A DNA stretch of 64,000 nucleotides from a virus: IMG/VR virus record IMGVR_UViG_3300006141_000001, one strand, 5' to 3'. The notes beneath the pieces are model-generated. The model saw only the letters and a list, made by a program, of their open reading frames with translations. It had not been told where the DNA came from and did not search any database. Numbering within the stretch: the stretch's first letter is position 1; each line of letters starts with the position of its first letter. Positions 2,575 through 54,121 of this stretch are shown here, piece by piece. Made by a program: the position numbers and the translations under genes.

Positions 2575-4370
2575 GTAACTATTCAGAACCCCCCTCATTC
2601 AAAGATGAAATCCGAGTGACCTGAAATTGCATTTTTGATTGCTTCGTAAGCATTGTATCCCTGCTTATGTGCTGTACCAACGTAGGACATGATTTTCAGA
2701 TAATCTCTGGCTCCTTCTTCCGTTCGGAAACAGCCGGATACTTTGGTCTTGACCTTTATCATCCGTAGATCACGCTCCGCCTGGTTATTATCAAACGGAA
2801 CCATGAAGTTATGGATAAAAAGGCAGACTGATCCCTTGTATTTCGCAAGGCGTTCTACCAGGGCAAGGATTTTCCCTTTTTTCTTCCGTCCACGCTTTTT
2901 CTTTGCGGTTTCCGGAAGGGGATTTTCTTTCCTTGCCAGTTCGAGGAGTTCATCATACTTCTTATCGAACTTATGACAGTGATAGTAGCTCAGGGAGTCC
3001 TTGCCCTTCCCTACAGCTTTCTCTTTAACCTTTTTCATTTCCAGTAAAAGGTTTATAAATCCAGATGCCCATCTCTGCCCGGGATGGTTTTCACTGATCC
3101 CGGCCAGCTCATGGAGAAGATGGGCACAGCAGACTGCATGCTGAATATCCGGATAATTCCAGTAGGAAGCCCAGCAGTCATGCATGGCAATCCCTTTGAA
3201 TTCCGGAAGAACGCCGCATTGCTCCATACCTGCAGTTCCACGTTTGGGACTGATATCAAGATAGGTGTATTCACAGTTTGAGGCGCCATGAACCCACCAG
3301 AGTTTTTTATCCACTCTGGTTCCGGTTTCGTCGAAATGTCCAAGCGCAGAACCGATCATCTTATCCTTGATCTTACCTACTGTTTCACTCAGACTGTCAG
3401 CGCATCTTTTTACCATGCTGCTGACCGTTCCTGTTGCAATCGGAATGTTAAATACTCCGGAAAGAATCTCATGGGTACGTTTGATGCTGACTGCGCCTAC
3501 GGTATTTAGTGCAACAGCTAATGCCTGAAGGTTTTCACCATACTGTACGGTTGCTTTTACGCCAGAAGGGAAAGCGCCTCTGCGGGTGTCCCCATGCAGC
3601 ATACAGATTGGAAGCTCCAGTGCCTGATGCTCCGTCACATTGACTGTAACAGCTGCATCAATCACATGGCGCTTTTCTGCAATGCATGCGGTGCTTTTGC
3701 ACATCTGATAGTGTGGGCATCCTTCGCATGGGGACGGCATATGCCTGACGGTTTCATCCGGGGCTGTTACCACCGCCAGATGTGTCCCCTGGTGCCCACT
3801 CTGCCCACCGGCCTTTTTCCCGGATGGCTTCCGGAGGCTCTTTGGGGGCAGGCTTTTTAAAGCCATCGGTGGATGGCGGTTTGGAACTATTTTGGGAATT
3901 CTTGTTAAGCTGTTCCTTCAGTTCCTGTATGGTCTGATTGAGTCGGGCAATCAACTGGGACTGGGCAGCGACTGTTGCTGATAATGTTTCATTTTGTTGT
4001 AATAGCTGTTTGATCAGTTCATCGTGTTTCAATCAGGCCACCTTCTTTCGGTAAATTTGATACTTCTATTATACTGGAAAATAAGCCAAAAAGCGAATCA
4101 TATTGTTTTGGTGTACTGTCAAAATGACTGTGGATAACTAGAAAAAAGCAGGGGTTAACTGCCGATAACTCTTGGATAAAATCCACAGATAGTACATTAT
4201 TTGGCTATAATCAGGGATTGATGGTTCCATAATCCACAGGCCAGAAGCATTTGGCAGTTATATTAAAAAGTTATCCACTTTTTGCAATAAAACAATGGTA
4301 AAACAGAAAATTTATTTTCTCTGTTTTGACCAAAAATTAATATACCCTAAACGGGGTGCTGAATAGTTAC
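2575..4370 (-). mobile_element. IS66-family element (single-transposase type), 1796 bp
   Basis: Terminal IRs GTAACTATTCAGAACCCC / GGGGTGCTGAATAGTTAC. 8-bp target duplication TGCCATAG at 2567-2574 and 4371-4378. Higher GC than flanks. Confidence 0.95.
2595..4032 (-). pseudogene. IS66 transposase split by a 1-nt frameshift near 3845
   Basis: N-terminal coiled coil plus NSQNSSKPPSTDG (3754-4032) continues into KSLRKPSGKKAGGQ, DETG and DNNQAERDLR (2595-3866) after an extra base in a C run. Confidence 0.85.
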
Positions 4371-32514: not shown

Positions 32515-33372
32515 TTATTCAGTTTCACATTCCCCCAAGATAAATTTCACGGATTTTTCTGCCCGACTGGCAGCCAACACGATAAATTTTGTGTCATTTT
32601 TTAATACTTTCAACCAGTTTTGGATATATGCAACATTATTTTTGAACGTTTTGTTCGTTTCTATGCCGCATATATTCAGCAAATTTGAAGCCCCTATTTC
32701 TGCCACCAGCTCTTCTTTTGAATATGTTTCGCTTTCAAACTTTGCATTTTTATCGTTCTCCCCGAATCTTTTAAGTCTGGTTGCATGCCCAGTACTATGT
32801 ACGGACTCATGGAATGCAGTTGAATAATACTCTTCGGAATTACCAAACTGCTCAATTAGAGGCAGATGGATCAAATCTAACTTAGGCGAATAATACGCCC
32901 TGTTACTCGCCATATTCTCAAAAGAAATGCCTTCTCTGCCTATGTAATCTGCGATTATCTTTTCAGCATGAGTAATAGGCTCAATTTGGTTTAGTTCTGG
33001 TTTTTCCATTGGTTCTACGCCTTCCACCTGGGAAATATGAAATACATTGTAATACCTTAGAATGGGGATGTTTTTTACAATTTTATTCCCCTCCTTATCT
33101 GTATCCTGAAATGGCTGGATTTTCCAAAATACTACCATTTCAGATTTTTCTCCTTTTCGTACATGTCCGCCAAACTGTTGCCATTGCTTAAATGTGGCGT
33201 ATTCACCATCGTTCTGGAGTAGCATCTGATTTAAAAAAGAATAGGGCTTTCTAGTAATACGATTAAAAGCCCCAGAGCAAAGCCCAGTCCATGGTTTTTG
33301 CCATGGGATTATGCCAGCCTCAAGCTGAGAAATAATCTTTTCCGTTACTAATTCGTATACATTTTTTCCCAT
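32515..33372 (-). CDS. ardC: ArdC-family antirestriction protein (ssDNA-binding plus zincin-like domain)
   Basis: YELVTEKII..LEAGIIPWQKPW, ATFKQW...GGHVRKGEK, FHESVHSTGH, EELVAEIGA. Confidence 0.9.
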   Translation of the reverse strand: MGKNVYELVTEKIISQLEAGIIPWQKPWTGLCSGAFNRITRKPYSFLNQMLLQNDGEYATFKQWQQFGGHVRKGEKSEMVVFWKIQPFQDTDKEGNKIVKNIPILRYYNVFHISQVEGVEPMEKPELNQIEPITHAEKIIADYIGREGISFENMASNRAYYSPKLDLIHLPLIEQFGNSEEYYSTAFHESVHSTGHATRLKRFGENDKNAKFESETYSKEELVAEIGASNLLNICGIETNKTFKNNVAYIQNWLKVLKNDTKFIVLAASRAEKSVKFILGECETE

Positions 33373-33408: not shown

Positions 33409-33675
33409 TTATCCTGCCGCCTGTTTCATTACTATATCTCCTGCATTCTTCTTAATGTACCACTTGATGTATTTCTTTCGTTCTTTTGTCTTTGGACTTT
33501 TTATAGGTGATATGTTTTTTAAGTATTCTGCCTTAATCCACAGTTTGTTGCCGTCCTTATCCTTACACCCGGCAATCAACTCTGTACCATATCCGGTGTA
33601 TGTTGGTCTTTCCCCTACCCTGGTATGTACAGACGGTATGCAACTACCCAAGCGCACTTTTTCGGTATACGCCAT
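33409..33675 (-). CDS. Hypothetical basic protein
   Basis: 88-aa ORF between the structured tract and ardC. Confidence 0.45.
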   Translation of the reverse strand: MAYTEKVRLGSCIPSVHTRVGERPTYTGYGTELIAGCKDKDGNKLWIKAEYLKNISPIKSPKTKERKKYIKWYIKKNAGDIVMKQAAG

Positions 33676-33719
33676 GAATCATACTCAGAAGCCCGTCCCA
33701 TATGGATCATTTTAGGCTT

Positions 33720-34880
33720 CTTTTCAGACAACCTTTTATATTAGGAAGGGAAATATAAGGCCTTGCTGCCTTTTTTTGTTTCCCTTCCTTGAATTTTTCA
33801 AGGAACTATTTCATAAGAACGCCCGTATTAGCACTATTCGGGGAAAGAATGTCCCCTATCTTATGAAATTTTGTGAAATTAGTTTCGGGAAATCCCCTAC
33901 TTACGGCACCGCCACGGGAAGGCTTTCACATGGTGCCATCTTTGCCAGCAGGGGCTTTAGTCTTACGTGGCGTAGTGCTTTGCCACTGCCTTGCCCCTAT
34001 GCGAATCCGCATTCTGGCATATATCTTGACTGCCCTTGCCTAGTGTTTTTCAAAGCCTGAGTGCTTCATCCATCCGCTTCCTAGTCTGATAGTGGCTTTT
34101 ATGTCCCGGTGGTGCCCGGTGGTTATTATGCCACGTACTAGGAAGTTTCTGCTTCCTCAGTGTTTGCCACTTCTGGAAAGTGCCTCCTATGGTTCAATCC
34201 CAGCTTTTCTTGCCGTGCCCTTACTGGGCTAGGATTTCACTGCCATAGAAGGCTGGCAGCCCGATATACGCCTTATGCGGCGGGTCTCTATCGCTATAGA
34301 CCATTTGCGCCCTTATTTACGGCCAGCAGTGACCGTCACTGTATTTATAGGTTTACTGTCCCTTTTTTTACCAGGTGGGCAAGACGCTTATCCTGGTTGC
34401 TTTGGTCTACGGGTTCCCGGCCTTCCCATTTACGGCTGGAAAGGTACTTATGTACCGTCCTCTTGAGTGCTTTGCTCTATGGATACTCACCAGGCACATG
34501 CACGGATGCACCTGGCTTTCGCCATATCCTCTACACTCTTGAGGATATATACCCCATAACTTTTTGGGGGAGTGGCAGGGTTTGATGCCCTGTCAGTATT
34601 TAAGAGATTCGCTCTCTTTTCGCGCCCACCTTCTGTTGATAAGGGATTGTGGGGAATCCCGGTGCAGGCACAATTTTTTACAGAGGCGTTGCCCGTCTTG
34701 AGCCTCTTTTGGGATGATTACGCTGTCCCCCTTGCGCCAACCAGGTTATTATTTTTTCGTCCCCTATCCTGGTTTGGTATATGGGACTAGATAGATATAT
34801 CCACTTATTACCCTAAAGAACGATGTATGCACTCATTGCCACGTGGGCAGCCCTCACGTCCTTAACTGGTAGGCCTCACT
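33720..34880 (-). ncRNA. Candidate large structured non-coding RNA (~1.15 kb)
   Basis: GC-rich, no credible ORF, about 20 consecutive or nested stems, purine-rich linkers on the minus strand. Confidence 0.6.
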
Positions 34881-35004
34881 ACCTTTTTTTATTCACTACC
34901 AGATTTATCAAAGCTATAATAAACAAGGCAAATGAATACTTATTTCTAATCATTACCATGCAAATTATGGAAATGATTAGTAAGGAGATGTTGATTTTTT
35001 TCAT
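34879..35004 (-). CDS. 41-aa hydrophobic peptide
   Basis: MKKINISLLIISIICMVMIRNKYSFALFIIALINLVVNKKR; no obvious RBS. Confidence 0.45.
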   Translation of the reverse strand: MKKINISLLIISIICMVMIRNKYSFALFIIALINLVVNKKR

Positions 35005-35019
35005 ATTGTTTGGTATAAT
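34991..35019 (+). promoter_or_regulatory. Antisense promoter facing the 44-aa peptide gene
   Basis: TTGATT-17-TATAAT with extended TG. Confidence 0.7.
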
Positions 35020-35063: not shown

Positions 35064-35198
35064 CTACCCAACAAGAGCCTTTAACAGACCCGCAATAGCG
35101 TCTATTAAAACTGAAATTGCTGTTATGACAGCGGCGACTGCCAATAGCATTTCAGAAGGCTTTTGATTGGGCTTTTTCTTTTTAGGTTTCTTGCCCAA
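35064..35198 (-). CDS. 44-aa basic/hydrophobic peptide, type I toxin-like
   Basis: AAGGAGG RBS plus TTG; MGKKPKKKKPNQKPSEMLLAVAAVITAISVLIDAIAGLLKALVG. Confidence 0.65.
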   Translation of the reverse strand: MGKKPKKKKPNQKPSEMLLAVAAVITAISVLIDAIAGLLKALVG

Positions 35199-35288: not shown

Positions 35289-35317
35289 ATTATAGCATAC
35301 AAGTTTTGATATGTCAA
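35289..35317 (-). promoter_or_regulatory. Perfect extended sigma-A promoter heading the leftward arm
   Basis: TTGACA-tatcaaaacttgtatgc(17)-TATAAT with TG at -15/-14. Confidence 0.88.
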
Positions 35318-35390: not shown

Positions 35391-35627
35391 ATGATGCAGT
35401 TGGTATACGATGGTGACACTAAAAAGATTATAGACGAAATCAGGCATAAAATGATTGATACAAACACAAGACAGAAAGACATAGTTGACAAATTAGGTTT
35501 GAGCAAGTCTACGGTATCTAACTTTTTAAGTTGTAAAAGTAAAAACCCAACATTAGATACACTTAAAATGTTTTGTGATGCAATGGACTGCGACCTAATT
35601 ATCAAAATACAAGAACGCGAAAATTAA
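35391..35627 (+). CDS. XRE-family HTH regulator divergent from the leftward promoter
   Basis: RQKDIVDKLGLSKSTVSNFL...NPTLDTLKMFCDAMDC; GGGAGG RBS. Confidence 0.85.
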   Translation: MMQLVYDGDTKKIIDEIRHKMIDTNTRQKDIVDKLGLSKSTVSNFLSCKSKNPTLDTLKMFCDAMDCDLIIKIQEREN

Positions 35628-37569
35628 AATTTGCACTTAAATTTAATAGGATTAAACAAGAATGACAATATTTTTTAATACTTTAATCCTTGCGTAACTG
35701 GAAAGAAATGACTGCTCGAAAAGGACTAGAGATATTAGTCTTTATATTGCTTGGTGTATCTAGGTGTGTTGTATGCAGTATTTTAGGTTTAGTTTAGGCT
35801 TGTTTTTATGAAGTTTGTGTGTATTGCTTAATATAGTACTAAAATGTAAAAATCGAAACACACGTTCGAAACGGCAATTTCGAACTATATCATATCATTT
35901 TGCTATGAAATACTTTTATAAATTGTGTACATTTTTTTGTTTTTAGCATAAATTTTCAGATATTTTTATGCTCATTTTTGTATTTGTATAGAAGACATAT
36001 GTACGCGCACAAAGGACTTTATGCCCCCTGGTGCTGTGTATGCTCATAGCATATATAGATTTTAAGACCTAAGATTTAAAAAACATACAGGAATACTATA
36101 CTATTCCTGTATGTTCTGTACCGGGCGGGGGTTGGTTTACATAATTTTTTAAACCTATAATTTATTAGGTCGCCCTATCATATCTGCTCAGACGCAACTT
36201 ACAAAAAATTCGCTTCTCTTTTAAAATTATCTGACAATTTAAAAGCAACACCCATAAACATCTCGAAAAAAGGCTCGGAAAATGCTCGGGACACAAAAAT
36301 AAATCTCTTAAAAATAAGTGAACACTAAATTGTCTGACAATTATAAAGAGACCAATTATCTGCCCAACAACCATAAAGCACCAACTAAATGACCAATAAA
36401 TCAAATAAAAATCCATCAATTTCCCGAACCCAATACCCGAACCAAACTCCTACAGAAAATTTCCCATAAAAATACCGATAAATTAGCCAAGAAAATCCAA
36501 TCAACATATCCCATAAAAATAGGCATTTTCAGAAAGAAAAAATCAATCCAAAAATACCTCAATTTTATCTAATTTCCCGAACTCCCTCTCATTGCGTTAA
36601 CTCACCAGACACATCAATATCATAATTACATAGCCAAAAAATGCATATGACATTATAGAGCCTCCATAAAATAAAGGAAAAACATTATACGATATCCTAT
36701 GAAAATCAAGAAGAAACTAAAAAAGAAAATAACAAGAAATTTAAGACCCCCACATAGACCATCATTTAAAGTTCCTAAAATTATATAGCCAGATATCAGA
36801 AAATCAAAAGCATGTTATGCATTTCCGTAAAAATTCCATAAACGCAGCACATGCCATACCATCAAGACAGCCCGTATTATCATTATTATTGCCTAACTAC
36901 TCTCCCACTATTCCAAAAATTCTCTCCTGGTAATCGTCTATCAGAAATTCCGTATAATTTCGGCGTGAAATCTGCATCCTATACAATCCACACCTCCAGA
37001 AATCCCTTAATAAATATGAGATAAAATTTTTATATGTTTAAATTACAGAAAAACACACCTAAAATCAATTTTAACTCATTATGGCACAACTTTACCCTTA
37101 CGATATTAAAATTGAAATTTGCCGTCTAAAGTGAAATTCAATCAACAGATCTTACCAAGCAAATATTCTGTCATATAAGTCATTTATAGAGATATTCATA
37201 TCATACTCAGTTTACAGGCTCAAACATATTATAGCAAACCATATAACATAAAACCCATAAGAGGGGTGTATTTAACATTTTTCACAATACACATTGCACA
37301 GAAGAGTAGTATTGAAAATATAGATGAAGATAATTGCCAGATATAATTTGAAATTTGATTGATTTAATATTTTCTTTTCATCCAGAAATAAAAACCACAA
37401 TAAATATTTATTTACATATCTATTGATTGTCAGATATCATCTTTTGCTTAGAAAAATATAATATCAATATTTGTAATAGATATCATATCATTTAATTATA
37501 ACTCTATTTCTGTAATTTTAAATCACTACTGCTATCCATATTTTTCTATTTTATATAGTTATAGAAAAT

Positions 37570-38220
37570 GAAAGAACTGAACCACTACCGGCTAAAGCCG
37601 GTAGGTTCGGTGTGCTGCTGAAGCAGCCTAAAGCTGTTTCCCCCGTAAAGTTTTCATTTACCCCGATACGTTTATCCTATCTCAAAGTTATCGAATTTTG
37701 TTTTCTCCTGCAAATCCTGATTTTTGATATACTCCTTGATAATTTCATCCGTCACATTCCCGCTGCTTGCCACAAAGTATCCCCTTGCCCATAAATGCTG
37801 TCCCCAAAACTGTTTATTTAATTCCTTATATTCCATCTGCAGTTTCCGGGATGTATTTCCTTTTATATATTGCACCAGCTTACTTGCTGAAAGATGTGGC
37901 GGAACAGAAACCAACAGATGTATATGGTCACTTCCCACATGTCCTGCCAGTATCTCCACTTCATTACTCTGGCATACCATGCGGATCAGCTCCCTTGTCC
38001 TTATAGCTATCTTCCCAACTATTACGGGTTTGCGGTATTTCGTGATCCATACCAGATGGTATTTAATATCATACGTGCAATGTGACGATTTCCTGTAATT
38101 TTCCATATCTTCACCTCAGGTTTAGTATTCCTATTTTTGCTTTATCTAAACCTGAAGCTATGGGGTTTACCTAAAGGTTTCGCCTAAAGGCGAGGGTTTT
38201 AACCCCATTATACAGACAAT
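37570..38220 (-). mobile_element. IS200-family element (tnpA only); ends approximate
   Basis: Subterminal hairpins ctaccggctaaagccggtag (37584-37603) and tcgcctaaaggcga (~38180-38193) flank a Y1 transposase. Confidence 0.85.
37672..38106 (-). CDS. tnpA: IS200/IS605 Y1 (HUH) transposase
   Basis: YHLVWITKYRK, DHIHLLV, LWARGYF, IKEYI. Confidence 0.95.
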   Translation of the reverse strand: MENYRKSSHCTYDIKYHLVWITKYRKPVIVGKIAIRTRELIRMVCQSNEVEILAGHVGSDHIHLLVSVPPHLSASKLVQYIKGNTSRKLQMEYKELNKQFWGQHLWARGYFVASSGNVTDEIIKEYIKNQDLQEKTKFDNFEIG

Positions 38221-54048: not shown

Positions 54049-54121
54049 GTGCCTATAACTCAATTGGTAGAGTAACCGGCTTTTAACCGGTAGGTTTTGG
54101 GTTCAAGTCCCAATGGGCGCA
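54049..54121 (+). tRNA. tRNA-Lys(TTT)
   Basis: GTGCCTA/TGGGCGC acceptor, ACCGG-CTTTTAA-CCGGT, GGGTTCAAGTCCC. Confidence 0.92.

Follow-up and report, generated by a model that had tools for sequence, protein, structure and literature searches.

The DNA stretch considered here, referred to as the window, comprises 64,000 nucleotides of the IMG/VR virus record IMGVR_UViG_3300006141_000001, and at its positions 33720-34880 there is a GC-rich tract that almost certainly specifies a conserved structured RNA on the minus strand. The proteins of the window are encoded on a 243-kb contig, and near-identical DNA is held by mouse-gut metagenomes from many studies. The gene content includes a divergent helix-turn-helix (HTH) gene, antirepressors, ArdC, integrases and a 940-amino-acid protein with weak similarity to RNA-dependent RNA polymerases; since the latter can be read as a YonO-type polymerase, the window would belong to a large SPbeta-like temperate phage. 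The tract is located near the start of a ~34-kb leftward (minus-strand) arm, whose early transcript likely begins at a sigma-70/sigma-A consensus promoter (35289-35317, minus strand; TTGACA-17-TG-TATAAT) that is also kept in the related locus L043. The original prediction, made from the letters of the window, had called this promoter perfect, and it is real, with a 12/12 match and the extended TG. The claimed rise in GC content was found as well (48.2% within 33720-34880, compared with 38.8% in the left flank, 31.9% in the right flank and 33.9% in the whole window), and no minus-strand open reading frame (ORF) of at least 70 amino acids is present between 33675 and 35327. The RNA does lie between the promoter and ardC, as proposed, yet two small ORFs intervene on its 5' side and one of 88 amino acids on its 3' side. 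The former are a basic/hydrophobic ORF of 44 amino acids with a TTG start (35064-35198, minus strand), in a slot taken by other small genes in relatives, and a hydrophobic ORF of 41 amino acids (34879-35004, minus strand), whose end falls at the 5' edge of the RNA. The 88-amino-acid ORF (33409-33675, minus strand), without a Pfam family, is the first gene 3' of the ribozyme described below, and this adjacency is not kept in distant relatives. The suggested link to the ArdC-like antirestriction gene (32515-33372, minus strand) fell away, as its position next to the RNA is not conserved and the ArdC relatives examined do not have the RNA upstream. tRNA genes are absent beside the RNA, the closest being at 54049 and 55302, in the other arm of the window.

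Thirteen distinct variants of the RNA in total were collected from phage contigs, gut assemblies and two Lachnospiraceae genomes, together with a partial one (L115; related loci are given by their L numbers), and 10 of the 13 are only 43-55% identical to the window. The homologues of the divergent Cro/C1-type HTH gene (35391-35627, plus strand) gave the first of them: two variants with 97% and 81% identity and common limits at 33620-34856, as well as a distant copy in the Lachnospiraceae isolate C64_1 (E 8e-38) and L105. The first operon gene of the phage so found led to L106, L120 and L121, and a search of IMG/VR with an invariant motif led to L122, L125, L128, L129 and L132; variants outside the model were matched by nhmmer at E <= 7e-22. 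Besides the copy in the cultured isolate C64_1, another one adjoins a gene assigned by NCBI to Schaedlerella arabinosiphila. A genus relative of isolate C64_1 has an array of clustered regularly interspaced short palindromic repeats of type I-C-like sequence (L101 1501-1535, G407), one spacer of which matches the L049 RNA core at 34/35 nt and points to the host genus. The invariant motif is uncommon, being present in a single one of 401 sampled family genomes, which had already been found, and among 30 ribozyme-word matches in GTDB three Lachnospiraceae contigs were genuine. There was no match by blastn to phages and plasmids, nor in IMG/VR to a pattern built on the duplicated module of the original prediction or to two over-strict patterns, and a metagenome scan gave chance matches only. 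In the related phages L117, L118 and L119 a stretch of 3-4 kb upstream of the same first gene contains no copy. It has to be noted that the sampled variants represent only ~6 independent lineages, therefore the shuffle controls quoted below overstate significance and their figures are not probabilities. No description of this RNA family was found in the literature searched, which largely excluded subscription journals.

The RNA is composed of a ~600-nt conserved core and optional 5' modules, reaching ~940 nt in the window, and separate folds of the variants converge on one common plan, all elements of which are given here on the minus strand. The 3' domain of the core (34007-34280) is formed by a closing helix of ~22 bp (34280-34255/34034-34007), which spans ~270 nt and opens a junction with two arms. 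Arm 1 (34253-34182) carries the loop GCACGG at 34218-34213, and arm 2 (34179-34036) terminates in a near-invariant A-rich loop (~34127-34097; AUAACYACCG...CGGGACAUAAAA), kept in 12 of the 12 aligned variants. The 5' domain (34283-34457) consists of short hairpins and two probable H-type pseudoknots, recognised by eye (34441-34415 and 34398-34356), and is preceded by a 5' arm (34458-34545) with the apical loop CCGUGC (34505-34500). The loops of the 5' arm, CCGUG(U/C), and of arm 1, (A/G)CACGG, are complementary, and since a U-A/C-G swap occurs between them, a kissing helix spanning ~290 nt is predicted. The distance from the kissing loop to the invariant loop is 381-401 nt in 10/13 sequences. 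A terminal helix (33950-33998), with equivalents in L044, L049, L105, L106, L122, L129 and L132, stands 5' of the ribozyme; in some variants only, 34019-34015 could pair with ribozyme P1 instead, which is not claimed. All stems listed in the original prediction are present in the sequence. Its tgccag/ctggca junction has no support from homologues, 34019-34016 being part of the conserved closing helix, and the module duplication it described is not conserved: at the site of the second copy (34398-34356), L044, L049, L105 and L129 have another sequence, with an equivalent stem and a loop pairing.

The closing helix is formed in all 12 aligned variants despite their differing sequences (duplex z from -2.9 to -8.2), and so are both arms, with z values from -2.2 to -6.6 for arm 1 and from -0.1 to -5.9, hence weak in some variants, for arm 2. 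The kissing helix reached 39% in the alignment-based test, where its columns are misaligned, and per-sequence duplexes were used instead: these comprise 6-12 bp in 12/12 sequences, the 6-bp cases being individually not significant. When a sequence-only alignment was examined for covariation, double-sided changes were established in 52 of 84 pairs, 21 of these pairs being derived from the alignment's own consensus, with 0/500 shuffles and a covariation of 0.384 vs <=0.159 in slid controls; RNAalifold recovered just 28 pairs from the same alignment. The proposal that the RNA is large and structured, comparable in size with GOLLD and ROOL, was thus borne out by covariation across highly divergent variants, although it belongs to neither of those families.

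The original prediction also considered a folded single-stranded DNA element, and such an element (ssi/Frpo-like), or a decayed gene, could be argued from the closeness of ArdC, as in conjugative leading regions, and from the plus strand, which holds a 141-amino-acid ORF and folds well too: compared with dinucleotide shuffles, 33720-34700 gave z of -9.9 on the plus and -6.5 on the minus strand (0/20 shuffles each). However, in 12/12 variants the minus-strand forms of the three main helices are the more stable ones; their pairing depends on G.U wobbles in the transcribed strand, and strain swaps between G.U and G-C at 34425/34440 and 34495/34510 fit the minus strand only. A compensatory strain polymorphism occurs at the pair 33786/33804. 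Codon-like conservation was not found: no frame is open in all variants, 14 of 16 indels relative to L044 are not multiples of 3, indels of 1-2 nt break the frames, and substitutions in the 141-amino-acid ORF show no third-position bias. Together with the ribozyme fold in which the structure ends and the unconserved ardC adjacency, this makes a DNA element or gene remnant highly improbable.

A feature that the original prediction overlooked is placed in the 3' part of the tract, at 33874-33937 on the minus strand, where a self-cleaving ribozyme fold similar to that of hepatitis delta virus (HDV) is found, a nested double pseudoknot of P1, P2, P3, P1.1 and P4. P1 (6 bp; 33937-33932/33910-33905) corresponds to the ggcacc/ggtgcc stem, which had been listed correctly but not identified. 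It is followed by P2 (33928-33924/33878-33874), P3 (33923-33921/33913-33911), L3 (UUCCCGU), the P1.1 pair C33918-G33904, P4 with the AGUA/GAA motif, and C33882 in J4/2 as the catalytic C. Across 13 copies 94% of cells are paired and 15/18 pairs covary (covariation 0.750 vs <=0.159 in slid controls; 0/500 shuffles). The P1.1 pair swaps between C-G and U-A, the position 1 pair is G-C in 11 and G.U in 2 variants, the L3 consensus is UUYMCGY, and the catalytic C is invariant (13/13) in the context CUAA or CCAA, with an A-rich linker after it. No Rfam HDV model detects the element at 33937-33874. The ribozyme is very probably active, and the cut should fall between U33938 and G33937. Because HDV-like ribozymes cleave at their 5' edge, this cut would define the 3' end of the upstream RNA, giving a predicted product of ~940 nt if counted from the GAGG module that marks its 5' edge, or ~1345 nt if counted from the promoter.

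The ribozyme is located directly 3' of the core in 10 variants; in L120 and L125 an insert separates the two, and in L128 no such ribozyme was found. On the 5' side of the RNA a type I hammerhead is present in L049 and L105, and a twister-P1 match (E 5e-8, under the gathering score) in L125, while most variants have no recognisable 5' ribozyme. Other small ribozymes were observed in the surroundings of related loci. Type I hammerheads with a short stem I, which escape Rfam, stand right after a small ORF at ~L049 4330-4385, L055 3345-3402, L102 1520-1575 and L105 2440-2500; pistol ribozymes, one of them directly 3' of ardC, and skipping-rope RNAs are found in related early operons (L020 3041-3109, L001 5879-5947, L106 8266-8347, L117 6287-6365).

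The RNA has as its 5' edge a module of the form GAGGNCU-RCC...GGY-NA-UAAGUG (34797-34878, minus strand, as are the elements below), present in the window in two nested copies; it forms the 5' edge also in L043, L044, L045, L049, L105, L120 and L129, is absent in L106, L122 and L132, and is repeated without the core in L025 and L055. A protein-binding site and an unrecognised ribozyme are candidates for its nature; a permuted twister was rejected, the P4/T1 partner being missing. Copies of the module (window 34797-34878; L025 18-320; L055 1781-1813) are seen alone, in tandem or nested; their stems covary, and they stand at the beginning of early leaders. The optional domain B (34622-34796) contains a covarying pairing, read by eye, of GUCCC (34787-34783) with GGGAC (34763-34759), formed by different sequences in L105, L120 and L122; the domain is deleted in L049 and partly present outside the family (L055, L060). 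A variable expansion segment (34555-34621) has a 191-nt replacement in one strain group and is missing from L049 and L105. The 3' trailer hairpins (33700-33873) occur in the closest relatives only, outside the conserved core. One may ask if the whole tract is a patchwork leader in which small modules, such as protein-binding sites, ribozymes and spacers, are lined up independently of each other, with no single large functional RNA. That the GAGG module, domain B and the ribozyme are each found without the core (L025, L055, L060, L072), and that strains are mosaic across the tract, is in agreement with this idea; however, it suits the 5' 300 nt only, because the core is intact and collinear in all variants, with long-span closing and kissing helices and conserved spacing, and as an account of the whole tract it is improbable. 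A second set of conserved non-coding modules was observed (L055 1200-2400, L060 5200-6550, L105 1-900, L125 250-500, L128 1-280), apparently another large structured RNA family, at times inserted between core and ribozyme. In other related phages the genomic slot of the RNA is occupied by different 1.2-kb non-coding tracts (L048 435-1650; L020 3000-4240), without similarity to the present family.

The size of the core, its pseudoknots and the near-invariant internal loop could also suit a core that acts as a large ribozyme, that derives from a group I/II intron (circularly permuted forms included) or that is matured into a circle, the more so as three variants are flanked by ribozymes, which would leave 5'-OH and 2',3'-cyclic-phosphate ends. 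Such ends are the substrate of RtcB-type ligases. Yet no Rfam intron model matched in the window or 8 homologous loci, and no reverse transcriptase is among the window proteins scanned. A helix resembling group II domain V is found in 2/12 variants only, and the resemblance was rejected, a domain V with the AGC/CGC triad not being conserved and no Rfam group II model giving a match. As to group I, there is no conserved P7 in the right order, and the UAGUC-like word is missing in the window and L044 and misordered elsewhere. The lack of a recognisable 5' ribozyme in most variants also counts against this reading, which is improbable. For the tract, the Rfam scan gave nothing at the gathering score and nothing credible at E <= 5.

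The most probable explanation is that the tract encodes a stand-alone RNA which resembles GOLLD and ROOL and is freed from the early transcript much as phage tRNAs are by theta ribozymes. The fold, its strand, its non-coding nature and the HDV-like fold come from comparison of the variants, while transcription, cutting and release are what we infer. Host RNA polymerase would start at the consensus promoter that heads the early arm and transcribe the RNA, and the ribozyme would cleave co-transcriptionally at 33938|33937, providing the large RNA with a defined 2',3'-cyclic-phosphate end and freeing it from the downstream early mRNA, which would retain the ribozyme as its own 5' end; in some relatives a hammerhead or twister would set the 5' end as well. 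The freed RNA may form a compact particle held together by its kissing loops, possibly in contacts from copy to copy like those of the ROOL and GOLLD cages, with the near-invariant A-rich loop exposed. As an accessory, trans-acting scaffold or decoy it could then bind, soon after infection or induction, a protein or complex of the host, although this specific role is a tentative guess from the kissing loops and the exposed loop. Equally speculative is the wider picture of a third family of giant ornate phage RNAs, without relation to GOLLD and ROOL, excised by ribozymes, perhaps circularised, and self-assembling by means of kissing loops to give a particle with an effect on the host.

An accessory trans-acting RNA is preferred since downstream genes vary among relatives, transcription would restart in five of them and some close phages do not have the RNA at the syntenic site. 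The same facts weaken the reading, raised already in the original prediction, of a cis-acting processive antiterminator (put/EAR-like) that would modify the RNA polymerase reading the ~34-kb early arm, with the ribozyme merely punctuating the mRNA. Such a role is in keeping with the place of the RNA at the start of a long co-directional arm, where ~8 terminator-like sites occur on the same strand, with a conserved UUGAAAA in arm 2 that resembles boxA and with boxA-like motifs in relatives' leaders. However, the UUGAAAA is base-paired in the consensus and put itself comprises only ~65 nt (PMC8632103). In addition, new consensus-like promoters lie at most ~210 nt past the RNA or ribozyme in L106, L120, L121, L122 and L128, and L117-L119 have no copy in the region searched. 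Since put acts while tethered to the transcript, a cut right behind the core would break the tether. Cis antitermination therefore appears unlikely, though it is ranked second to the trans-acting RNA and above the patchwork leader and the intron relic.

Several observations weigh against a stand-alone RNA. Whole-core folding is modest in distant variants (z from -1.2 to -6.1, 12 shuffles), and the ribozyme P1, with its register set by P1.1 covariation, has 6 bp, one short of the canonical HDV P1 of 7 bp, although a conserved AU at -2/-1 might lengthen the pairing in the precursor. The same ribozyme exists without the core in L060 and L072, and operons of this kind are generally punctuated by ribozymes (Perreault et al., 2011; PMC3088659), so it may serve the downstream mRNA instead. 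Moreover, the 5' 300 nt (GAGG modules, domain B and expansion segment) are optional and shuffled among phages, and the RNA is always near the head of the early arm, as expected of a cis-acting leader. Contigs of one mouse metatranscriptome cover most of the tract, which is compatible with expression and does not prove it, for strand, ends and level are not readable from contigs; a gap in these contigs across the predicted cut (33896-34001, where the DNA contig is continuous) was dismissed as evidence, coming from one study and contigs only.

Beside the RNA, small-gene cassettes were observed in L043, L106, L120, L121, L122 and L129, each bracketed by an inverted repeat of 21-33 bp. The 5' arm of the repeat is boxA-like and mostly overlaps the cassette's own -35 box, and the 3' arm is the 5' half of the cassette terminator. 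Long transcripts begun at the upstream promoter would keep the terminator masked and continue past it, and those initiated in the cassette would stop. The repeat duplex resembles an RNase III processing stalk and could define this RNA's 5' end. In the window, the pair of small hydrophobic ORFs (35198-34879) is opposed by a plus-strand promoter (34991-35019) and faced by a plus-strand hairpin with a U-tract near 35154-35184, an arrangement that resembles a type I toxin-antitoxin pair. To the right of the HTH gene, a long non-coding stretch with C/A skew contains a 33-bp near-palindrome (36082-36114), IS66 and IS200 transposases are encoded at 2595-3866 and 37672-38106, respectively, and a weak tRNA-like match with an aberrant anticodon arm is present at 1135-1218.

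Taken together, the observation of a GC-rich, structured, ORF-free tract was confirmed and its earlier interpretation partly supported: the tract appears to represent a new family of large phage non-coding RNAs with an attached HDV-like ribozyme variant unlisted in Rfam. Just a handful of bacterial and phage RNA classes above 500 nt have so much conserved structure, and the function of GOLLD and ROOL is a standing open question (PMC12286853); the present family offers an independent fold, a predicted exact 3' end, natural indel variants that delimit the minimal core, a cultured isolate, C64_1, and a covarying HDV-like variant missed by Rfam. Among known systems, HK022 put and B. subtilis EAR are similar in being structured RNAs that start a long operon (PMC8632103), but the present RNA is ~10x larger than put, predicted to be severed from the transcript and dispensable in close relatives. 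The ribozyme-containing operons of Perreault (PMC3088659) share self-cleaving ribozymes flanking variable units, a long phage transcript and a close antirestriction gene (there ardA), yet here a large non-coding RNA takes the place of a gene as the flanked unit, and its ribozymes are of more than one class, with a hammerhead or twister on the 5' and an HDV-like one on the 3' side.

The OLE, raiA, HEARO, ARRPOF, tmRNA, RNase P, SRP and 6S Rfam models gave no match; neither did GOLLD (RF02032), nor, in the window or homologous loci, ROOL (RF03087). As a positive control, the ROOL model scored 286.7 bits at G526:66314-66928, in a phage whose copy of the present RNA is at 80850. In the L129 phage a true ROOL thus stands 14 kb from its copy of the present RNA, with no sequence similarity between them. 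The full ROOL at G526:C1 66314-66928 (L135) is followed by a tRNA-like sequence, two giant RNAs occurring in one genome. The likeness to ROOL and GOLLD lies in size (600-950 nt), multi-way junctions, pseudoknots, kissing loops and prophage location (PMC5737381; PMC12286853), and with GOLLD the RNA shares a conserved 3' and a variable 5' region. Unlike them, it heads the early arm, not being beside tRNA genes, and a ribozyme follows it; abundant expression and protein-free oligomeric cages typify ROOL and GOLLD, and the present RNA may form cages of this kind.

Rapid cleavage is compatible with a P1.1 made up of a Watson-Crick pair and a U.U or C.U pair (PMC13635239), and the candidate ribozyme resembles the CPEB3/Ackermannviridae type in its nested double pseudoknot, a Watson-Crick plus U.U-type P1.1 and the catalytic C in J4/2 (PMC13635239), its P1 being one pair shorter. 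Theta ribozymes are HDV-like, mature phage tRNA 3' ends in gut phages and have Bacteroidota as ~90% of hosts (PMC10879173). They cut <=5 nt from a tRNA 3' end and have a minimal P4, whereas here there is no tRNA and P4 is extended: the upstream RNA is large and ornate, P1 has 6 bp, P4 is full and carries an AGUA/GAA motif, and the host belongs to Bacillota. Nevertheless, an HDV-like fold, a G1 cut site where an upstream structured RNA has its 3' end, and a gut phage are common to both, and the present family would carry the theta-ribozyme concept beyond tRNAs to a large non-coding RNA.
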